Under the pieces are notes generated by a model, which saw nothing but the letters and a program-made list of their open reading frames with translations, had not been told where the DNA came from and searched no databases. A program made the translations under genes and the position numbers. From the NCBI RefSeq assembly GCF_037902255.1, contig NZ_CP147990.1, positions 2,640,001 through 2,672,000 on the forward strand: a DNA stretch of 32,000 bases, in the 5' to 3' direction. This DNA is from Candidatus Electrothrix sp. GW3-4 (GTDB taxonomy: Bacteria > Desulfobacterota > Desulfobulbia > Desulfobulbales > Desulfobulbaceae). Of this stretch, positions 3,691 to 23,154 are shown in pieces. Each line of letters starts with the position of its first letter. Positions within the stretch are counted from its first letter, which is position 1.

Positions 3691-5700
3691 TCACCAATCC
3701 ACCCGCAGGGTGTTATCCAGGGCGACAACCTTGCTAATACGGATCTTAACGGTATCACCAGGTTCCACAGGAAAGGAGGGATGAGCTGCCAGATCAATAT
3801 CAAACAGGCAGTCCAGCAAGAGCAGACTGACCCGTTTAGGACCGTGACTGACCACCAGAGCTGAGACCCTTTTACCAACCAGATCTTCTAAATAGCGGAG
3901 AACCCAATAGCGATGCCGCTGCTGCCGAACCTTATTGGCCCGGCCCAATTTCTGCTGAATCGTCCCGGCAAAATTCTTACATATATCTGCGGAAAAGAGC
4001 ATGCCGCGTCCGTGAATCAGGTGTGAGATCTGGAGCTGCATGGCCGTATCGAGAAAACGACGAATGGGTGAGGTGATGGTAGTATAACAGTTCAGGCCCA
4101 GGCCGGAATGAGGTTTGGGATGGACGGTCAGCTCTCCCCGGGCCAGAAAACGGCGCTGGCAGGCGATATCCTGGAGGCTGTTCTGCACCCCAGAGATCAG
4201 GCGTTTTCGGGGAGGAGGCTGGGAACGAAACAGGCCCGGTGCCTCCTGAGCCGCAAGATAATCGGCAGCTACCCCGTTGGCCAGGATCATACACTCGGAA
4301 ACCAGATTCCGGGACGGGCTGTCAGAGGGACTGAGATGAATAGAGACCTTACCCTGATTACTGACATAGATATTCACATCTGGAAAAGAGAGGAGCAGAG
4401 CCCCGCGTTCAACCCGCTTCAGGCGCAGCTGCTGACGGACCCGGTTAAGCAGACTCAGATCCGGGTCGGTTTCCATCATTTTATCCGTCTCAGTATAACT
4501 GAGCTGGCGTTTCACCTGAATAACACTGGGGACAATCCTGCTGTTCCTGATCTCACCTTGCGGCGAGATCTTGACCAAAAAACTGACCGCTGGTCGCACC
4601 CTGTCCTTAATCAGACTGAACACGCCCTGAGAGAGTTCTCTGGGCATCATAGGGATCTGCCCTTCGGGGAAATAAAGCGAGGTGGCCCGCTCCATGCCTT
4701 CCAAAAACAGAGGGTCCTTGGGGGTAAGAAAATAGCTAACATCTGAGATATGAATCCCGACCAGGACATCACCGTTTTCAAGCTCTTCCACATGCAGGGC
4801 ATCGTCATAATCACGGGTGGAAGCCCCGTCAATGGTCAGGGTATTCAGATCGCGGAAATCCTTGCGCTTGGGATCGGCTAATAATTCTTCCGCAGTAGGC
4901 TCTTTGATGCTTTCAGCATGAGCCATCAGTTCCGGGCTGAATTCCACGGGCTGTTCTGCCTGGAGTAGGGGGAGATTCTCATCTCTTTCCCAGACACCAG
5001 CCCGGACCAACAGATAATAGGCCTGGTTAGGCTGATGCAGCTCTGCCTTTTTCAGGAGTTGACGGACCACATCGGCCTGTTCTGCCTCGCTGCCAAACAG
5101 GACAAAATCGGCAATCCAAGCAAGGATTCGCTCCCGATCCGGCCATTGCTCCGCTGTCACCTGCTCCCCTTGCATAATGGTCTGCAAATGCGCCGCACCA
5201 GTGGTCAGGATTGCCTCTTTTTCCTTTTCCTTCTGCCGCTGATGGCGCAGCTGCTCTACCTGTTCTGGGGTATGAACATTAACCATCTCGTTTTTATATT
5301 TAAAGAAAAAACGATCGGTAAACACGGCCCGAAGAAAGGCGGCCGACTGATCATCGGTGAGATTTTCACCAAAGGAGAGTTCGGCAAGGAAGTCTGCCGG
5401 AAATGCGGTTTCTTGTTCTTCACTGGCCAGCTCCCAGATCTCTTCCAGCGGGATAGCGTTGGTCAGCGCTGCCCGTATCGCTGCCATCTCCTTAAGCAGG
5501 GCTATACGATCGTCACGGCTGGTACTGATTTGATGTTTCGTTTTGGAGGCTGTAACCACACGGGAGGTGGGGAGGTTCATTTCACGCCCGTTCTGATTGA
5601 GCAGACGCAGGCGATTATTGCTGTCCTGTAACACAAGACCGCAGATAAAACGCCCGCTGTCAAGATATTCGATAATAGTTCCGGGAGGTGTCATTGTCAT
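3691..5700 (-). CDS. RNase II/RNase R family 3'-5' exoribonuclease (RNB domain, C-terminal S1-like)
   Basis: Contains the RNB motifs [17 protein letters not shown] and [21 protein letters not shown]. Start chosen at [12 protein letters not shown] (ATG 5700); the track ORF extends to 5778. Confidence 0.85.
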
Positions 5701-9891: not shown

Positions 9892-9978
9892 TGTTCTTTC
9901 ATCTCAAACAATTTTATATGAAAGTACCGACGACTCCTTGGAGTCGAGTCGTCCGATCAACTTTTACGCTTTGTTGAC

Positions 9979-9995
9979 CCTCCCCAGAGGGGAGG
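9979..9995 (-). terminator. GC-rich hairpin 13 nt downstream of the ppk1 stop (possible terminator or RNA-stabilising stem; no U-tract)
   Basis: CCTCCCC-aga-GGGGAGG: perfect 7-bp stem with a 3-nt loop. Confidence 0.3.
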
Positions 9996-10007
9996 AATGG
10001 GAGTTAT

Positions 10008-12215
10008 TCACTTCTTTCTCTGCCCTTTTTTTCGTTTCACAAGCCTTTTCTGTTCCAAACGACAAAGCGCCTGGGCATCAGAGAGGCGTTTCTCAGCCTT
10101 TTCGATCAAAATGTCATGGCTCCCCTTTTCGCGCTTGCTGGTACGCTGGATATACCTGCCGTCCGGCTGCATTTCCCAGGCACTGCGCTGATCAGCAAGC
10201 TGCACATCAAGAATTTCCCGCAACACCTTGCGCAGCTCCTCCGGTTCTACCGGCGTGATAACCTCCACCCGATCCTCCAGATTCCGCTTCATGATATCAG
10301 CAGATCCGATAAAATACTCTTCCTCACCGTTATTCTGAAAATAATAGATACGGCTATGTTCCAGAAACCGGCCCACAATGGAAATCACCCGGACGTTTTC
10401 CGACAGGCCGGGAAGCCCTGGCCGAAGTCGACAGGTATCACGAATGAGCAGATCCACCTGCACCCCAGCCATAGAGGCCCTGTACAAGGCTGCTGTGATA
10501 TCCTTATCCTCCAGGGCATTGGTCTTGAACTGGATTTTCCCTGGATTCTTCGTGCTATGGCTGGCAATCTCCCGCTCTATTTTCTCCAGCAGGGCCTTTT
10601 TCAGCACCCTGGGTGAGGGCAGCAGTTTGCGATAATTACGCTCTGGTGCATAACCAGTGGTAAGGTAATTAAATAACTCTGTAAGATCCTGGGCAATTAC
10701 CCGGTCACTGGTGAGTATCCCGAGATCAGAGTACATCCTGGCCGTGCCTGCATGGTAATTGCCGGTGCCGATATGGGCATACCGACGCAGGCCATCAAAA
10801 TCCCTGCGCACCACAAAGATGACCTTGGAATGGGTCTTGAGACCAACCACCCCGTAGGTGACATGGACTCCGGCCTCTTCCAGGTTCTCGGCCCAGCGGA
10901 TATTGGCGGATTCGTCAAAGCGGGCCATGAGTTCCACCACCACGGCCACCTGTTTGCCATTCTGGGCCGCATCCAGCAGATAAGGAATAATCCGGGAGCC
11001 TGCCGAGGTACGGTACAGGGTCATTTTTATCGCCAGCACCTTAGGGTCACGACTGGCCTCACGGAGAAAGCGCTGCACAGAGCTGTCAAAGGACTCATAG
11101 GGATGCTGGAGCAGCAGGGCCCCTTTTTCCCGAATCACATGAAAAATATTAGGAGAATCACCAGAAAGCTGAAAATGATCAAGGGGCTGATGCAAGGGGT
11201 AATGGAATTCCGGAATATCAATAGAGGCAATCTCAAAGAGATCCCGCTTGCCGATGATGCCCTCCACAGTGAAGACGTCCTTTTCCTCGTCAATCCCCAG
11301 CTCAGCCGCCAGCATCCCCCGATGCGTTGCCGACATCTTGGCATCCACCTCCAGCCGGACGATCTCAGCAAATTTTCGATTACGCAACGCCGTCTCAATC
11401 ACTTCGAGCAAGTCATTAGCATTGGCCCCAGCCTGCTCGGTAATGGCATTGCGGGTGACCCGGAAGAAGGTACAGGAATCAACGACCAGGCCAGGAAAGA
11501 CCACCGCCAGATTATTGGCGATCAGGTCCTCGAAACGGATATAGAGATGTTCCTCTCCCACCCGGATAAAGCGAGGGATACCGACCCCGGTGGGAACCTT
11601 GATGCGATTAAGAAAGGGATGGGCGTCATGGTGATACTTGGTCACGACCAACAGATTTATGGACAGGTTGGAGATAAAAGGAAAGGGGTGAGCAGGATCC
11701 ATACCCTGGGGGGTCAGGAGGGGATAGATGTTCTCCTGAAAATAATTATCCACCTCCTTGCGCTGGTCCTTATCCAACTCCTGGTAGCCGACGATCCTGA
11801 TCTCCTGCTCAGCAAGTTTACTGAGCAATTCCAGCTCCAGCTCTTCCTTCTGCACCAGGATATTGCGCACCACGGCATAGCATTCATCAATCTGTTCGCC
11901 TGGGGTGCGGCCATCCACGGTCAGCTTACGCACCCCGGCCCCGACCTGCTGTTTAAGGCCACCGATCCGCTTCATGAAAAATTCGTCAAGGTTGCCGCCC
12001 ATAATAGCCAGGAACATGATCCGTTCCAGCAGCGGGGTGCGCTCATCCTGTCCCTCGTGCAGGACCCGACGATTAAACTCCAGCCAGGTCAGCTCCCGAT
12101 TCAGGTACCATTCCGGCAAGGTGAGATCAAACTCCGGTCTGTCCGAACTGCCACTCTGGGCATCGGGATTATTTTCCTTGGAAACCGAGGTCGTAACCTC
12201 ACTTTTTTTATTCAT
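10008..12215 (-). CDS. ppk: polyphosphate kinase 1
   Basis: 735 aa. N-terminus YLNRELTWLEFNRRVLHEGQDERTPLLERIMFLAIMGGNLDEFFMKRI. The autophosphorylation-region histidine lies in LKTHSKVIFVVR. PLD-like C-terminal domains (GSADIMKRNL). Confidence 0.95.
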   Translation of the reverse strand: MNKKSEVTTSVSKENNPDAQSGSSDRPEFDLTLPEWYLNRELTWLEFNRRVLHEGQDERTPLLERIMFLAIMGGNLDEFFMKRIGGLKQQVGAGVRKLTVDGRTPGEQIDECYAVVRNILVQKEELELELLSKLAEQEIRIVGYQELDKDQRKEVDNYFQENIYPLLTPQGMDPAHPFPFISNLSINLLVVTKYHHDAHPFLNRIKVPTGVGIPRFIRVGEEHLYIRFEDLIANNLAVVFPGLVVDSCTFFRVTRNAITEQAGANANDLLEVIETALRNRKFAEIVRLEVDAKMSATHRGMLAAELGIDEEKDVFTVEGIIGKRDLFEIASIDIPEFHYPLHQPLDHFQLSGDSPNIFHVIREKGALLLQHPYESFDSSVQRFLREASRDPKVLAIKMTLYRTSAGSRIIPYLLDAAQNGKQVAVVVELMARFDESANIRWAENLEEAGVHVTYGVVGLKTHSKVIFVVRRDFDGLRRYAHIGTGNYHAGTARMYSDLGILTSDRVIAQDLTELFNYLTTGYAPERNYRKLLPSPRVLKKALLEKIEREIASHSTKNPGKIQFKTNALEDKDITAALYRASMAGVQVDLLIRDTCRLRPGLPGLSENVRVISIVGRFLEHSRIYYFQNNGEEEYFIGSADIMKRNLEDRVEVITPVEPEELRKVLREILDVQLADQRSAWEMQPDGRYIQRTSKREKGSHDILIEKAEKRLSDAQALCRLEQKRLVKRKKGQRKK

Positions 12216-12474
12216 CTTTTTCTCTTTTTAGACCGCAGATTGCGGAATAATGTCAAAAACTCCTGTTTTCAGCACCACTTCTTCTGCTGAAGTATTGAGC
12301 AGTTGTGAGAGGAAGTCAACATTTTTCGCTTTTCTCTTTTGGTTTAGCGGGGTAATGTTATGTTGTCCTTTGGATAACAAGCAGGCTTTGAAGCATATTT
12401 TCTCTAAGGAGTACATGCGCTCGAAAAAACTGAGCAACGTACCAGAATCGGTACTCTCTCCACCACCTCCACAT

Positions 12475-17567: not shown

Positions 17568-17610
17568 TCTACAGATCCTGCTGACTTTGCCTCCCCTCTC
17601 TGATCTCTGC

Positions 17611-18324
17611 ATGCCCACGGCCTCTCATGAAACAAAAAAGGAGTATGTGCGCCAGACCTTTGCCTCTATCAGCCATCGCTATGATTTCCTCAACGGCCTG
17701 CTCTCCCTGTTGTTCGACCGCTGTTGGCGCTGGCACATCGTCCGCCTGCTCGCGGATCTCCCGGAAGGCCCGGTGCTGGATCTCTGCGCAGGAACCTTAT
17801 CCCTGTCCAGGGAGATAGCCCGGCAGAACCCGAATCGGCACATCTATGCCCTGGACTTCTGCGAGAATATGCTCAGGGCTGGGGTGCAAAAACTCCAGGA
17901 CGATCCCCACAGTTCCAGAATCTCTCCTCTCTGCGGAGATGGAGAGGCCATTCCGACTCTCGGGGATATCTTTTGTGGTTGTACCGTGGCCTTTGGGATG
18001 CGAAACCTTATCAATCGCCAACAATGCCTGGCAGAGATCCACCGGGTTCTCCGCCCCGAGGGCAGGCTGCTGATCCTGGAGTTCTCCCGTCCAACCAACA
18101 GGTTGTTCAAACCGATCTACCGCTGCTATCTCCATCATATCATGCCCTGCATCGCCGGAGTCTGCGCAGAAAACCGAGAAGCATACAAATATCTTGCCCA
18201 ATCCATTGCTTTGTTTTATGAACCAAAGGAGCTCCTTGCCATGATGCGGGCGGCAGGCTTCACCCAGGTGGAGCGCAGGCAGCTGACCTTGGGGATTGTT
18301 TCAATCTATGTAGGAAAAAAGTAG
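17611..18324 (+). CDS. ubiE: demethylmenaquinone/ubiquinone C-methyltransferase (UbiE/MenG)
   Basis: ETKKEYVRQTFASISHRYDFLNGLLSL..., SAM motif VLDLCAGT, and LRPEGRLLILEFS. ATG 17611 is preferred over the TTG at 17587 used by the track. Confidence 0.9.
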   Translation: MPTASHETKKEYVRQTFASISHRYDFLNGLLSLLFDRCWRWHIVRLLADLPEGPVLDLCAGTLSLSREIARQNPNRHIYALDFCENMLRAGVQKLQDDPHSSRISPLCGDGEAIPTLGDIFCGCTVAFGMRNLINRQQCLAEIHRVLRPEGRLLILEFSRPTNRLFKPIYRCYLHHIMPCIAGVCAENREAYKYLAQSIALFYEPKELLAMMRAAGFTQVERRQLTLGIVSIYVGKK

Positions 18325-18354
18325 GCGGGCAATTACGGAAAAAAAGGACAGGTC

Positions 18355-20887
18355 ATGAGCGAACTTCCTGACAACGGACTCAATATCAGCAGACCGGTTG
18401 CTCTCTGGAACCGGGAGATCAAGGCGGAACCGCGCAAGCTCCTGCTCGGCATCGGCAAGATGCTGGTGGAAGGGGCAATGCTGGATTTCAGCGACGCTGC
18501 CAGTGCTGCTCTGGATACCTTAGACGCGGCGGGCCTGCGAAAGAACCCCGGCGAACTGGCTTGGCTGCTGATCTATCGCGCTCTGTCCGCCGCCTTGGTC
18601 GAGCTGGTAAAGAATTACGTTGATCTGTTCCGCAATCCGCCGAAAGAGGATGAGTTGGATAATATTTCCAGCCAGTTTGAACAGGCAATGGCAGAGGCGA
18701 ATGTCACTATTACCCTGAATTTCTTTGACCGGCCCGGTGACCTTTCCCTGCTCAGGAATCTGCACTCCCCCTTGACCGACTGGCTGCAAGGACTCGGAGC
18801 GACAAGCGCAGATGCAGAACAGATTGCCTGCCGTCTGCCGGATTATTTTATTTTTACCCTGCACCAGACCTGGCGCAAGGCCCCACAAGATTACGCCGCC
18901 CTGACCCAATATTTTGACAGCCCGTTCACCGAGGCGACAGAAGAGCTGCGGAACTGGCAGCTCTACGCCCAGCACCTGCAACGGCAGGTCAGCGACCGGA
19001 TGTTTGCCGAGGCATTTGGCGTGGATAAGGTCTATGTGCCGCTGCGGGCCTATTACGAGGAAAAGGAGCAGGGAGACGAGCGCGGGCAGGCTCTGGAACT
19101 GCAACGGGACCAGGTCAAGCGGATCGTGGTGGATCTGGAAGCCAAGTTCCGCAGCTGGGTAAATAACTTCAGGAAAGAAACCGCTGTCCGCTTCATCAGC
19201 GGTGGGCCGGGGTCAGGCAAGTCCACCTTTGCCAAGATCTTTGCCGCCAAAATCGCCAAGGAAACCGATATCCCCTGCCTGTACATTCCTCTCCATCTCT
19301 TTGCTGCCACGGACAACCTGATCCCGGCAATGGAGAACCATATCCGTAACAATCCGTTCCTGTCCGGCAATCCGCTGGATGCCAAGACAGGCAAAGACCG
19401 CCTGCTCATTATCTTTGATGGCCTGGACGAACTGGCTTTGCAGGGCAAGGCCGCCTCGGAGGTGGCCAACTCTTTTGTTGATGAGGTGCTGCGTCGCATT
19501 CTGGAGGGCAACAGTTTTGGCAACCAACGGCAGGTCATCATCACCGGGCGCACCATTGCTGTGCAGTCCGTGGCAACCAAACTGCGTGAAGCCAAGCAAA
19601 TCAGCTCTGTGCTGCCCTATTTTGTCGAGGAAGAGGAACGGAAAGAATTTCATGACCCGGACGAACTGCTGGCCGAGGATCAGCGGCAGATCTGGTGGCG
19701 GCAATACGGCGAGGCTGCGGGCAAAGACTATGCGGGCCTGCCTGCGGAGCTGGATCGCAAACATCTTGCCGAGATCACGGCCCAGCCCCTGCTCAATTAC
19801 TTGGTTGCCCTCAGCTATGACGGCAAGACCTTCACCTTTACCGACGAAACCACCCTGAATCAGATCTATGCCCACCTTATCAAGAAAGTGTACTGCCGTC
19901 AGTACGAAGAGGGCGGTCGGATCAGTGCTTGCGCCGGTGATTTGCAGGAGAGCGAGTTTCTTCGAGTGCTGGAGGAAATCGCCTTGGCTGTCTGGCACGG
20001 GGATGGGCGCACCGCCACGGTTTCGAGTATTCAAGAAAAATTCAAGGCAGGCGGAAAACCGCCAGGAAGGTGATCCTACCTTTGAGTTCACCCATAAGAG
20101 CTTTGGGGAGTACCTGACCGCCCTGCGGATTATCCGCCTCTTGCGCCAGATGCAGAAGCAGCGCAGGCGGAGGCAGGAAGACCCGGATGATGGGTGGTCG
20201 GAAAAGGAGGCCTTGCGGCATTGGACTTCCTTTTGTGCGATCACATATATGGATGAAGACCTTCTGCGTTTCATCAGCAATGAATTCCAAACTATGACGC
20301 AGGAGAATCTACTTGCCTTACAGTCTATGGTTCGTAACTTGTTGAGCTACACTATCAATCAGGGTCTGCCCTTTCCTGATGAATTTCTTGGCAAAGGTTT
20401 TAAGGAGCATCTGCGCTTGGCCCGGAATGCAGAAGAGGCCTTGCTGGCTGTGCATTTTTACATTGCGGAGCTGACCAAGCAGGTTTCAAGATTGGAGTTG
20501 GCATCAGATATAGCCTTCGGGAATTGGATTTCTCGGGTGAGGGGGATGCATGCCTATCCAAGCTGGTTAGGGCACTTGGATTTATCCGGCTATGATCTTT
20601 CGGCCCAGAATTTTATTGCGGCAAACTTTGCCATGTCTCATTTTAATAAAGCAAACTTGTCTTATTCAATTTTTCTACTCGCAAACTTGAGAGGGGTGAA
20701 GCTGGAAAAGGCGCGACTTATAAGAGCTAATTTGATAGGTGCAAACCTTGTAGGAGCCAATTTCAAGGGTGCAAACCTTAGTTTGGCTGATTTGCGAGGT
20801 GCAAAGCTGGAAGTGGCAAATTTGGATGGAGCCAATTTAGATGGTGCCATTTTCACAGGCACCATTCTGGAAAACAAGGATTCGTAG
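18355..20887 (+). pseudogene. NACHT/STAND P-loop NTPase with C-terminal pentapeptide-repeat domain, split into two overlapping ORFs by a +1 frameshift (18355..20073 frame 1; homology resumes in frame 2 at about 20072 and runs to 20887)
   Basis: Walker A ISGGPGSGKST (19201-19227). Walker B LLIIFDGLDEL (19402-19431). The NACHT-type block TFEFTHKSFGEYLTA is readable only in frame 2, just after the frame-1 TGA (20071-20073). About 19 pentapeptide units occur at 20573-20860 (ANLIGANLVGANFKGANLSLADLRGAKLEVANLDGANLDGAIF). The N-terminal ~270 aa are helical with no effector domain I recognise. An AAGGA SD lies 8 nt upstream, and the gene starts 30 nt after menG. Confidence 0.75.
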
Positions 20888-20930
20888 GGACACGGCGTGC
20901 CGTGCCCGGTGTTGAAACACCGGGCTATTA
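20884..20930 (+). terminator. REP-like GTAG hairpin plus a second perfect hairpin immediately after the NACHT-PPR stop (possible terminator; weak T-tract)
   Basis: GTAG-GGACACGGCGTGCCGTGCCC (imperfect palindrome, 20884-20907) overlaps GCCCGGTGTT-ga-AACACCGGGC (perfect 10-bp stem, 20904-20925), which is followed by TATTATC. Confidence 0.4.
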
Positions 20931-20982
20931 TCGGCAGTCCCTCCGGGACGCTGTGCATCTTTTGATGCAGGGCCTGCCGGGT

Positions 20983-21276
20983 AGAAGAGGAATGCTCTGG
21001 AAAGCGGGACAATCCGCCTTCGGGGCCGGAGAAACCCCACCTCTTCGGGAAAATAACCCGATGGAACAGGGCAAAAAGCCCCTGCATCGGGCAGAAATGG
21101 TCTTGGAGCGGGAGAAGGCCAGCCTGAAGCAGGCAGAAATGCTTCTGAAGTGGTATAAAACGACGCTGCAGGAGGAGAAAGTGGTTCTGGAGCGGTAAAA
21201 ATGCTTCTGTAACGGGAGAAAATGCGTTTGCAGCAGGAAAAAACGGCTCTGTAGTGGGAGAAAATTATTCTGCAGT
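20983..21276 (+). repeat. degenerate tandem array with 21-nt period: 9 clear units (21088-21276) and about 5 weaker upstream units
   Basis: Units read off the sequence: CGGGCAGAAATGGTCTTGGAG / CGGGAGAAGGCCAGCCTGAAG / CAGGCAGAAATGCTTCTGAAG / TGGTATAAAACGACGCTGCAG / GAGGAGAAAGTGGTTCTGGAG / CGGTAAAAATGCTTCTGTAAC / GGGAGAAAATGCGTTTGCAGC / AGGAAAAAACGGCTCTGTAGT / GGGAGAAAATTATTCTGCAGT. The consensus is roughly GGGAGAAAATGnTTCTGnAG. A 1-nt register slip occurs near 21193. Confidence 0.8.
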
Positions 21277-21361
21277 ACGTTTCTCTGATTTCCCCCCGGT
21301 CCGGAACGATTTTTATCTGCTCGCGACGGAAAAATTCAGCTAATTAACCGAATAGCAACCT

Positions 21362-22570
21362 ATGAAACAACCAGACATCCTCTCCCAAATAGCTCTCGGC
21401 GAAGACAGCACCCGGCAGTTCAAAGCGGATGTAAAAAACGTCGAATCCTTGGCCGCAGAGATGGCCGCTTTTGCCAACACCAACGGCGGCACCATCTTTA
21501 TCGGCGTGGCCGATGACGGCTCCACTCCCGGACTTTCGCAAAAGGATGTGAGCCGAATCAACCAGCTGATCAGCAATGCCGCCAGCCAAGGCGTTCGCAG
21601 TCCGCTGACTGTGGAAACCGAAAATCTGGCTTTGGAAAACAGTCGTCTTGTGATCGTGCTGCGGGTTCCCAAGGGAATCGACAAGCCCTATTTTGACAAG
21701 AACGGCATCATCTGGCTCAAAACAGGCTCAGATAAACGCCGGGTCAACTCCAAGGAGGAACTGCGCAGATTATTTCAGATTACTTCCCAGTTTCATGCCG
21801 ACGAACTCCCCACCAAAGCAGGCATCGACAAAGTAGACAAGCTCCGTTTCCGGGATTTCCTCCGGGATGTCTACGAAATCGAATACCCTGATTCCATCGA
21901 AAAACGAACCCGCCTGCTGCAAAATATGAATCTGACCACCGATGACGGAAACCTCAATCTGGGTGGATTGCTGATGTTTGGCGAACAACCGGAATTAATC
22001 ATGCCTCAATTTGTGGTCAAGGGCATCCGCTATCCCGGCAATGAAATTCACGCCTCAGACTACATGGACACCGAGGATTTTGTCGGCCCCCTGCCAAAGA
22101 TCTTCGCCGATGTCCTGGCCTTTATCATGCGCAATCTCCACAAAGTACAGGCCGGGCGGGGGGTGAATTCTCCAGGCATACCAGAGGTGCCCAAAACAGT
22201 CTTTGAAGAATTACTGGTCAATGCCCTGGTCCATCGAGATTATTTAGTCAGCGCGGCCATCCGGGTGTTTATCTATGACAACCGCATTGAAATCATCAGC
22301 CCAGGTCACCTGCCCAATAATCTGACCGTGGAAAAAATCCGTGCGGGCAACGCCAATATCCGCAATCCCATCCTGGTTTCCTACGCCGCCAAAGGGTTAC
22401 TGCCGTATCATGGCTTAGGCTCCGGCATCAAACGGGCCCTTTCCGCATGGTCAGATATTGAATTTCAGGATGATCATGAGGGCTGCCTGTTTACCGCAAT
22501 AATCTATCGGAAGCCATTAGAAGAGCTCAACGGGTCAAACGCAACCCAAATGAAGCAGGAAAAAAAATGA
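21362..22570 (+). CDS. AlbA_2 (Schlafen-like, divergent-AAA) domain protein with C-terminal HATPase_c_4 / RecG-C-like domain; putative nucleic-acid-binding regulator or ATPase
   Basis: 402 aa. N-terminus GEDSTRQFKADVKNVESLAAEMAAFANTNGGTIFIGVADDGSTPGL is the AlbA_2 signature. C-terminus FEELLVNALVHRDYLVSAAIRVFIYDNRIEIISPGHLPNNLTVEKIRAGNANIRNPIL is HATPase_c_4-like. The stop overlaps the ubiX ATG (ATGA at 22567-22570). No obvious SD. Confidence 0.85.
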   Translation: MKQPDILSQIALGEDSTRQFKADVKNVESLAAEMAAFANTNGGTIFIGVADDGSTPGLSQKDVSRINQLISNAASQGVRSPLTVETENLALENSRLVIVLRVPKGIDKPYFDKNGIIWLKTGSDKRRVNSKEELRRLFQITSQFHADELPTKAGIDKVDKLRFRDFLRDVYEIEYPDSIEKRTRLLQNMNLTTDDGNLNLGGLLMFGEQPELIMPQFVVKGIRYPGNEIHASDYMDTEDFVGPLPKIFADVLAFIMRNLHKVQAGRGVNSPGIPEVPKTVFEELLVNALVHRDYLVSAAIRVFIYDNRIEIISPGHLPNNLTVEKIRAGNANIRNPILVSYAAKGLLPYHGLGSGIKRALSAWSDIEFQDDHEGCLFTAIIYRKPLEELNGSNATQMKQEKK

Positions 22571-23154
22571 CCAACATGACAAATGGAAGCCCCCACCCAC
22601 AACGCCTCATCCTTGCCATCACCGGGGCCACCGGCATGCTCTATGTCACCGCCCTGCTCGACTTGCTCGCGGACCAGGACCTGGAGGTGGATGCAATCAT
22701 CTCCGATTCCGGCAAGAAGGTCCTCCGCCTGGAGCAGGACCTGACCCCGGAAGACCTGCCCGGTGTCAGCCGCTGGTTTGCTGCGGGCGACTTCACGGCC
22801 CCGCCCGCCTCGGGCTCGGCCCGTTACGAGGCCATGATCATCCTCCCCTGCACCGTGGGTACCCTGGGTGCCCTTGCCAGCGGTTTTTCCGGCAACCTGA
22901 TCCACCGGGCTGCGGACGTCACCCTCAAGGAACGACGCCCCCTGATCCTGGCGGTGCGCGAGACCCCGCTCAACCGCACCCATCTCCACAATATGCTGAC
23001 CCTCCATGATGCCGGGGCCACCATCTGCCCGCCCATGCCCTCTTTTTATCTCCACCCCCCTGACCTCCAGGTCATGGCCCGCCAGTTCGCCAGCCGCATC
23101 TGCGACCAAATTGGCCTCCATCTACAAGGAATGCCGCGCTGGCAGGGCGTTTGA
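22567..23154 (+). CDS. ubiX: UbiX-family flavin prenyltransferase (likely partner of the late futalosine-pathway decarboxylation step)
   Basis: 195 aa. RLILAITGATGMLY..., PCTVGTLGALASGFSGNLIHRAADVTLKERRPLILAVRETPL and LHDAGATICPPMPSFY are typical UbiX/Pad1 blocks. Confidence 0.9.
   Translation: MTNMTNGSPHPQRLILAITGATGMLYVTALLDLLADQDLEVDAIISDSGKKVLRLEQDLTPEDLPGVSRWFAAGDFTAPPASGSARYEAMIILPCTVGTLGALASGFSGNLIHRAADVTLKERRPLILAVRETPLNRTHLHNMLTLHDAGATICPPMPSFYLHPPDLQVMARQFASRICDQIGLHLQGMPRWQGV

Follow-up and report, generated by a model that had tools for sequence, protein, structure and literature searches.

The intergenic region between a STAND NTPase gene and an AlbA_2 gene of Candidatus Electrothrix sp. 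GW3-4 carries a tandem array of 21-nucleotide (nt) units, which we find to be a real, selectively maintained repeat element of the Electrothrix lineage. The element was analysed within a window of 32,000 nt (contig NZ_CP147990.1, positions 2,640,001 to 2,672,000 of the forward strand), and positions below are those of the window. It is a composite, with three degenerate units at the 5′ end, then six to nine canonical units of 21 nt, and a single inverted unit that closes it; in the window it is not an intact gene. Its unit number changes by gain or loss of whole units, and it is constrained now at specific nucleotides of every unit, that is, by position-specific purifying selection on a core. 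None of the specific readings in a preliminary description of this DNA (a decayed heptad-coding gene, phased binding sites for the adjacent AlbA_2 protein, or a type III toxin-antitoxin-like repeat RNA) holds as written. The reading we prefer, tentatively and with rather more doubt than conviction, is that this lineage-restricted, non-coding composite element may act as a phased multi-site binding platform. Phased binding sites stay the best reading because the conservation is at the nucleotide level and specific to unit positions.

Results

Architecture of the array

The stretch 21088–21276 has self-identities of 0.53 and 0.60 at lags of 21 and 42 nt, compared to a maximum of 0.43 in 2000 shuffles (lags 4–63); no segment of equal length (189 nt) in the 32-kb window is as periodic, not even the adjacent region that codes for pentapeptide repeats. 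Tandem Repeats Finder (TRF) reported both a period of 21 (4.8 copies, 67% matches, score 79) and a period of 42 (2.2 copies, 78% matches, score 105) at 21174–21272, and a repeat search recovered eight in-register copies with 21-nt spacing from 21048 on. The 9-base core GGNNNAANNNNNNCTGNAG, with at most one mismatch, gives 10 consecutive in-register matches across 21069–21275; the remaining 12 matches are dispersed, with a chance expectation of ~10 for the whole window. These results bear out the tandem 21-nt array of the preliminary description. That periodicity is real, but the units are of two alternating types, GGGAGAAA.. and GGTAAAAA..., and 42 nt is the true period. Each canonical unit comprises a conserved core, CTGNAG-YR-GG-NR-RAAR, and a free spacer of ~6 nt, and it is the alternation of E-type and K-type units that creates the 42-nt superperiod. 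A core of ~15 nt (CTG-N-AG-YR-GG-NR-RAA) is constant between units and between genomes.

Related arrays were located by blastn (Candidatus Electrothrix sp. Rat3) and via small open reading frames (ORFs) called on the same sequence (L094, L090 and L089), giving five aligned assemblies: the window, L001 (Rat3), L094, L090 and L089. The five homologous arrays align end to end from ~21016 to ~21330, with indels of 21, 42 or 41+1 nt, and outside these limits the sequence varies with genomic context. Unit counts are 12 in the window, 11 in L089, 10 in L094, and 9 in both Rat3 and L090, and L089 carries a recent 42-nt duplication. The element and its parts are as follows.

21016–21330, + strand: whole conserved composite element (5′ degenerate units, canonical units, 3′ inverted unit), alignable in five Electrothrix assemblies
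21027–21088, + strand: three degenerate 5′ units of a G/C-arm hairpin type, for example CAGGGCAAAAAGCCCCTG, starting at 21027, 21047 and 21068
21089–21276, + strand: nine canonical 21-nt units, starting at 21089, 21110, 21131, 21152, 21173, 21194, 21214, 21235 and 21256
21193–21194, + strand: 1-nt deletion (register slip), the G-run GGG of L089 being GG here and AGG in L094 (alignment column 251)
21277–21330, + strand: 3′ module, a partial inverted core ACGTTTCTCT at 21278–21287 plus an inverted unit at ~21288–21320

The preliminary description had extended weaker units back to about 20983. By itself, 20983–21087 shows no significant periodicity (P = 0.33); the orthologous alignment backs three degenerate units back to 21027 and nothing at 20983–21026, such that only the nearer part of the extension stands. 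Taken alone, the degenerate units are weakly periodic; they lie in the array register and are strongly conserved across genomes, with AAATAACCCGA, for example, invariant. At the 3′ end, the inverted unit is present in all five genomes, and a repeat search identified inverted arms at 21196–21223 and 21288–21315 (28 nt, 75% complementary). The TAA stop at 21196–21198 and the 1-nt slip at 21193/21194 that had been pointed out earlier are both present. At the slip, the window is one base short relative to L094 and L089, both of which have the equivalent unit, and a second 1-nt deletion occurs near 21031 (alignment column 88). We considered a homopolymer sequencing error as the source of the slip, which could not be shown; the frameshift in the neighbouring NACHT gene is an 86-nt deletion, not a homopolymer change.

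Position-specific conservation

Nine of the 21 unit positions (GG..AA......CTG.AG) are near-invariant, both between units and between orthologous units, while the other twelve differ in 20–55% of orthologous comparisons. The information content of a unit position is inversely correlated with its difference between orthologues (Spearman –0.78, P = 3e-5), and falls near 0 at six positions. The comparison was kept from being circular by taking the core positions from L089 only and scoring the window, L094 and Rat3 for variable columns; 13 of 79 core columns vary versus 36 of 73 spacer columns (Fisher P = 2e-5). Lineage-specific changes number 7 in the core (52 sites) versus 30 in the spacer (68 sites), and on the window lineage alone there are 0 core versus 6 spacer changes. 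Between the window and Rat3, 28–36% of the four-fold degenerate sites of neighbour genes differ, as do ~24% of aligned array columns; spacer variability is comparable to that four-fold-site divergence (0.28–0.36), consistent with approximately neutral drift. Average constraint on the array is mild, and is very unevenly spread over the unit positions.

These data bear directly on whether the array could be a neutral minisatellite or relic, in which the apparent conservation of particular positions follows from unit turnover or gene conversion. The between-genome identity of the array (76–83%) is only modestly above that of four-fold sites (67–72%), unit-scale indels together with the recent duplication in L089 indicate turnover, and several Electrothrix species are without the element, all of which would suit such a reading. 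However, conversion homogenises all positions alike, leaving nine invariant and twelve saturated positions unexplained; since gene conversion is not position-specific, it cannot explain the contrast between core and spacer. The contrast also stays in rows of unambiguous orthology, where only 4 of the 38 variable columns belong to the core versus 43% expected (hand count), and on both grounds gene conversion and misassigned orthology were rejected as sources of the pattern. We consider a neutral origin improbable.

A phased binding platform as the preferred reading

As the period equals two helical turns, all cores and A-tracts come to lie on one side of the DNA. The 10.5/21-bp phasing of A-tracts (AA) is the strongest in the window, at 27 versus 4.7 ± 3.1. 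A wedge model based on Bolshoy–Trifonov parameters, applied for comparison only, gives the array a ratio of end-to-end to contour length of 0.75 versus 0.92 ± 0.05, corresponding to predicted curvature. Under the same model the most curved stretches of the window are at ~12034–12370 and 9892–10185 (ratios of ~0.60–0.65), and these exceed the array.

In the mechanism we propose, the 21-bp period would present the cores and A-tracts on a single helical face, and the array may thereby form an intrinsically curved, phased platform to which a putative sequence-specific nucleic-acid-binding protein could bind cooperatively. The last direct unit and the inverted unit together would make up an operator-like palindrome. 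Such a platform would probably insulate the genes that follow it from the STAND or toxin-antitoxin genes upstream, or tune expression between them. A stronger version, which we hold to be doubtful, is that the array represents an undescribed, selected phased scaffold of defence and toxin-antitoxin hot spots that gates nearby immune genes. Such a scaffold would offer ~10–12 copies of the 15-nt core on one helical face, closed by the inverted copy, and a candidate binder encoded at the locus might be an antitoxin-type repressor or the Schlafen-like AlbA_2 protein.

Arrays of comparable geometry are familiar from replication and partition systems. The iteron arrays of theta-replicating plasmids, with their operator inverted repeats, and centromere-like arrays such as sopC and parC are direct repeats of ~20–22 bp in helical phase, with sites on one DNA face and cooperative protein binding expected. 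The Electrothrix element resembles them in its helical-phase 21-nt direct repeats and in an adjacent inverted partial copy near a downstream gene. It differs in having no Rep initiator or ParB/ParR gene (the neighbours being the STAND NTPase, AlbA_2, ubiE and ubiX), in its chromosomal housekeeping flanks, in the lack of any plasmid or phage match, and in its far more degenerate units.

Several observations weigh against the binding-platform reading. At ~67%, the units match one another less closely than the repeats of classical iterons or centromeres do; the known arrays number just five, from about four independent lineages; and several Electrothrix species do without the element, so that any function must be dispensable. 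A DNA-level role and an RNA-level role are not separable from sequence alone. Finally, the three-base pattern of the variable positions also suits a coding frame on the minus strand (ratio of nonsynonymous to synonymous substitution, dN/dS, 0.43–0.63), the subject of the main rival explanation.

Coding readings on either strand

Two of the reading frames that bear on a coding origin of the array are listed here.

20662–21331, − strand: ‘xPLQxxF’ heptad reading frame, split between two frames at 21193, where one nucleotide is deleted
20902–21198, + strand: 98-codon ORF, annotated as hypothetical protein WGN25_11815 (WP_339133074.1) of Ca. Electrothrix sp. GW3-4

The minus-strand frame is antisense to the frame of the 98-codon ORF. 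On this rival account the array is a present or recent minus-strand gene for an orphan, basic, aromatic-rich heptad peptide, ([LIC]-[PL]-L-Q-x-x-F)n, which is intact in some Electrothrix genomes and pseudogenised in the window. Of the six frames it has the lowest dN/dS (the range given above), and its proportion of synonymous differences (pS, 0.29–0.38) equals neutral four-fold divergence. The free unit positions 18, 21 and 6 fall on the wobble base of Leu CTN, Pro CCN and Phe TTY codons, only synonymous two-fold alternatives occur at positions 6 and 15, and minus-strand ORFs of 116–153 amino acids (aa) are open in L089, Rat3 and L090 (three of five genomes). However, the frame is broken in two of about four lineages, by two 1-nt deletions in the window and a TAG in L094, and in the window it has no start codon upstream of 21087. 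Core positions are nevertheless conserved on the window lineage (the 0 core versus 6 spacer changes noted above). The start and stop codons of the frame are different in each genome and fall within flanks that are not homologous, and the Rat3 ORF runs antisense into a PIN gene. The codon-usage score is ~0.05, as for the antisense strand of real genes, compared to 0.36 for a real gene, and unit positions 3, 9 and 15, which are third codon positions, show stronger conservation than do the first and second bases of the variable codons. The minus strand is pyrimidine-rich, so that stop-free frames are expected there. Neither Pfam nor PDB yielded a relative, and the gene was not called by any pipeline. 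Taking both sides together, we judge a minus-strand gene unlikely, if more deserving of attention than the other alternatives.

On the plus strand, no frame is conserved as an ORF across the five genomes, and the conserved positions fit no codon pattern in any plus-strand frame. WGN25_11815 reads through the hairpins that precede the array and into the array itself, with a dN/dS of ~1; its ATG is lost in two genomes, a stop occurs in a third, and a 1.2-kb toxin-antitoxin insertion splits the Rat3 version. An exhaustive phmmer search with the 98-aa product against 1.84 billion representatives retrieved only ORFs of these same arrays and one KTTLD low-complexity protein. Gene callers pick this ORF because the codon usage of its frame is good; it is probably a spurious gene call.

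A second plus-strand frame had led to the suggestion of a decayed gene for a Hep_Hag/YadA-head-like protein with G-x-N-[AS]-x-[AV]-x heptads. The frame reads GKNASVT GENAFAA GKNGSVV GENYSAV in the window, and in Rat3 it stays open over 113 codons, shares its frame with the start of AlbA_2 and meets a single stop further upstream. GGN and AAY wobble is seen between units, and the 14-residue superperiod agrees with the beta-roll repeat of the Hep_Hag and YadA-head families, which is 14 residues long. The best PDB matches are likewise heptad beta-roll proteins, at non-significant values and for the L089 translation only (3ULT, E = 0.068; BpaC, E = 1.5). The element resembles Hep_Hag/YadA-head (PF05658) genes in its 21-nt (7-codon) period, its 42-nt (14-codon) superperiod and one frame of the expected pattern, but differs in lacking a profile match, an ORF and purifying selection in frame, and in its contrary codon phase. 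Conceptual translations of the window and Rat3 match zero Pfam families at E ≤ 10, a word-indexed search of 5.8 billion protein clusters gave no homologue, and the window's own translation has no PDB match. The frame has no start codon and contains a TAA (within AAATAACCCGA) that is invariant in five of five genomes; its dN/dS is 0.6–0.94; unit positions 7, 16 and 19, all third codon positions, are fixed, whereas position 18, a second codon position, is entirely free. A dead gene, moreover, does not fit ongoing constraint. The earlier proposal finds no significant support from Pfam, protein or PDB searches, and we regard it as very unlikely.

RNA-level readings

The preferred reading assigns the conserved cores to DNA binding; an alternative is that the element works as RNA, in the form of a transcribed composite repeat similar to BOX elements. 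Unit 1 or 4 would then pair with the terminal inverted unit and close the array into a large stem-loop, serving to stabilise an mRNA, to provide a processing site, or to sequester protein as a sponge with multiple sites. Array and flanking genes share one orientation in four contexts, the fifth being L090, whose upstream gene differs, and terminal inverted complementarity is conserved. RNAalifold keeps the pairing of the inverted arms in five of five genomes, with no compensatory changes in the local hairpin, and the consensus fold includes a long-range helix between unit 4 and the inverted tail with four compensatory pairs, i.e. pairs changed on both sides. However, the overall covariation is marginal: the score is reached by 26 of 500 shuffles, and the compensatory-pair count by 63 of 500. 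The whole intergenic region folds with z = –3.7, but the array alone only with z = –2.0. Rfam has no family for the array, and a scan for consensus sequences only gave no plus-strand sigma-70-like promoter or intrinsic terminator in 20600–21600. There is no Watson–Crick covariation inside units, and GGA does not occur in every unit, so that the array is not CsrB-like. We consider an RNA-level function quite unlikely on balance.

Two more specific RNA candidates were rejected. In a CsrB/Rsm-type GGA sponge, GG would be followed by A; here GG at positions 2–3 precedes a free position 4 (A, T or C), and no Rfam match was obtained. The AGAA-N4-5-TTCT inverted repeats described earlier are indeed present in some units, but a hairpin per unit is not borne out, as only some units could form it and they show no covariation.

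In architecture, the element is closest to pneumococcal BOX elements (boxA, tandem boxB, boxC; PMC3049150), and it also resembles the iteron and centromere arrays. BOX elements are likewise intergenic composites whose terminal modules have inverted complementarity and whose internal tandem modules vary in number between strains, with length changing by whole modules (PMC3049150). A regulatory or RNA stem-loop role has been proposed for them, and they occur as many dispersed copies per genome with 45-nt boxB units (PMC3049150). By contrast, the units here are 21 nt long and far more divergent, and the element occurs once per contig in five assemblies of a different phylum; the likeness is one of architecture and not of sequence comparison. 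The element is a member of neither the BOX nor the iteron/centromere family, as it fails defining features of both: in the contigs scanned it does not occur as many dispersed copies, and it has no Rep or Par gene or plasmid context.

Distribution and independence from AlbA_2

The five arrays occupy differing surroundings. In Rat3, the array (L001 4655–4889) is parted by the 1.2-kb toxin-antitoxin insertion from the hairpins after the NACHT gene. L094, at the same locus, has RelB/YafQ 5′ of the array and Phd/PIN between array and AlbA_2, and L090 has MazE/PIN between array and AlbA_2. L089 represents a different locus, with the array directly after a Y1_Tnp gene riddled with repetitive extragenic palindromic (REP) sequences, before a Phd-type gene, and without AlbA_2. 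The array occurs once in the 32-kb window and once in each related contig, a second genomic context being found only in L089, and clusters of the array-borne small ORFs have 1–2 members each. The array was not found in E. communis, E. aarhusensis or E. marina, nor in Avs4-type loci. For 77 AlbA_2 loci of other phyla, sequence matching revealed no array, and the 600 nt upstream of these genes contain no analogous periodic repeats either. A blastn search of plasmids and phages gave no array match, a pattern scan of viral contigs was empty, and a scan of JGI metagenomes returned one true locus (L090 itself) and two chance matches. Judged from these searches, the array is restricted to Candidatus Electrothrix genomes, in which its surroundings are a variable hot spot of defence and toxin-antitoxin genes.

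The array is consequently independent of AlbA_2, being absent at the 77 other AlbA_2 loci and present in L089 without that gene; in L094 and L090, toxin-antitoxin modules intervene between the two. The general idea of phased protein-binding sites in the preliminary description has become our preferred reading, but its link to AlbA_2 has to be given up: with the 77 loci and three Electrothrix species lacking the array, and one array lacking AlbA_2, the adjacent protein is not specifically implicated as the binder.

The same comparisons bear on whether the array could be a repeat RNA like those of type III toxin-antitoxin systems and neutralise the Schlafen-like AlbA_2 protein encoded downstream. 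In ToxI loci, near-identical units of 36 nt precede a terminator and the gene of a ToxN-family endoRNase; eukaryotic Schlafen AlbA_2 domains are RNases, which speaks for the proposal. As in ToxI loci, the tandem array stands directly upstream of a protein-coding gene on the same strand. However, the units are too divergent (67% matches in TRF), the downstream protein combines AlbA_2 with HATPase_c_4 and is not of the ToxN, AbiQ, CptN or TenpN type, and the consensus scan gave no promoter or terminator. Nor is the linkage conserved: AlbA_2 genes lack the array in the 77 loci and in sister species, toxin-antitoxin modules have been inserted between array and AlbA_2, and the L089 array has no AlbA_2 gene. 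This reading is close to refuted, and we consider it extremely improbable.

Further origins were tried and rejected. A high-copy miniature inverted-repeat transposable element does not agree with the single true locus and two chance matches of the metagenome scan, and a plasmid or phage origin is not backed by any blastn match. No similarity was found to the 1687-aa Avs4-type gene that precedes AlbA_2 in other Electrothrix genomes, of which the array might have been a 3′ remnant; derivation from the adjacent pentapeptide repeats, whose period on inspection of the sequence is 15/30 nt, seems improbable. No integrase, as expected beside an integron cassette site, was found among the large ORFs scanned with Pfam, and a Chi-like over-represented motif is contradicted by neither skew nor excess being seen outside the array.

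Flanking hairpins and neighbouring genes

The gene order is mqnA, ubiE, the NNH3-NACHT-pentapeptide STAND gene, a 474-nt intergenic region, AlbA_2 and ubiX. The features that flank the element are listed below.

18355–20887, + strand: upstream neighbour, NNH3-NACHT-pentapeptide STAND NTPase, frameshifted here (Pfam)
20884–20980, + strand: cluster of REP-type hairpins after the STAND stop, flanking the array and not part of it
20884–20907, 20905–20950 and 20950–20980, + strand: the individual hairpins, respectively GTAG-tagged, matching Acido-Lenti-1, and a third hairpin
21362–22570, + strand: downstream neighbour, SLFN_AlbA_2 + HATPase_c_4 protein (Pfam)

The hairpin cluster is 92% identical to Rat3 over its region. 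Its Acido-Lenti-1 match (Rfam RF01687) scores 40.2 bits versus a gathering score of 37, with the Rat3 orthologue below threshold. In L095 (Electrothrix sp. EH2), three Acido-Lenti-1 matches of 46–49 bits lie beside a Y1_Tnp gene, and at least five copies (L095 162–546, 1018–1063) flank this 150-aa Y1_Tnp (RAYT/IS200-like) gene. In the Acido-Lenti-1 seed alignment (2010), copies are 200 nt apart in Lentisphaera. Together, these comparisons suggest that Acido-Lenti-1, an orphan Rfam family, may be a REP/BIME-type element rather than a small RNA. The 5′ hairpin cluster, with its GTAG-tagged palindrome, is like REP/BIME elements with RAYT transposases (PMC2817692, PMC3733652) and like Acido-Lenti-1 (PMC2864571). 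The 21-nt units differ from these in not being palindromic, and the N of CTGNAG is free, which sets them apart from GTAG-tagged REPs. In Rat3 a toxin-antitoxin module stands between the array and the REP cluster, and the two are thus separable. In L089, a Y1_Tnp-like gene (4090–5075) is interrupted by several GTAGGGGCGG...CCGCCC REP copies, and the array is directly downstream of this gene, after a GTAG-tagged hairpin that resembles window 20884–20907.

The STAND NTPase occupies two overlapping ORFs in the window, with the break near 20041–20054. Compared to the intact orthologues of 911 aa (Rat3) and 872 aa (E. communis), the frameshift corresponds to a deletion of ~86 nt, and the gene is probably a pseudogene in this genome. 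The AlbA_2 protein is 95% identical to its Rat3 counterpart, and PADLOC gave weak similarity to pAgo and Aga models and nothing else. Relatives with AlbA_2 and HATPase_c_4 show 73–82% aa identity across Desulfobacterota, Gammaproteobacteria, Chlorobi, Verrucomicrobiota, Planctomycetota and Spirochaetes, an unusually high cross-phylum conservation that suggests horizontal spread. The Electrothrix copies, at ~400 aa, are without the C-terminal winged-helix region of the ~470-aa relatives. The AlbA_2 stop overlaps the ubiX start (ATGA, 22567–22570), which suggests that this island gene may be translationally coupled to a housekeeping gene.

The interval from mqnA/ubiE to ubiX (window 17587–23154) is a variable defence hot spot in Electrothrix, in which either a bNACHT-type gene or a 1687-aa Avs4 gene precedes the conserved AlbA_2 gene. 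AlbA_2 follows the NACHT gene after 66 nt in E. communis, and in other Electrothrix contigs the Avs4 gene (PADLOC E = 1.8e-174) ends 15 nt 5′ of AlbA_2. Insertions of various PIN/Phd, MazE/PIN and RelB/YafQ modules and of IS110 copies occur at differing points. Matches to the c-di-GMP-I-GGC riboswitch occur on the minus strand of two related Electrothrix loci, L002 (586–664, 59 bits) and L089 (6666–6743, 58.2 bits), versus a gathering score of 59; both lie close to the region studied here, though beyond its limits.

Discussion

The array also serves as a case in which a 21-nt periodicity and a protein-like translation do not alone indicate a coding relic. Were it merely a dispensable minisatellite, its interest would be local. 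A functional orphan heptad-repeat microprotein antisense to the array, if true, would be equally novel as the phased scaffold. If the observed constraint reflects function, the element would constitute a compact and experimentally tractable regulatory or architectural element, built from repeats, within a bacterial immune-gene hot spot where NACHT or Avs4 STAND genes, toxin-antitoxin modules and a Schlafen-like gene are exchanged around the array, and it would do so in a cable bacterium, a host with almost no characterised regulatory DNA.

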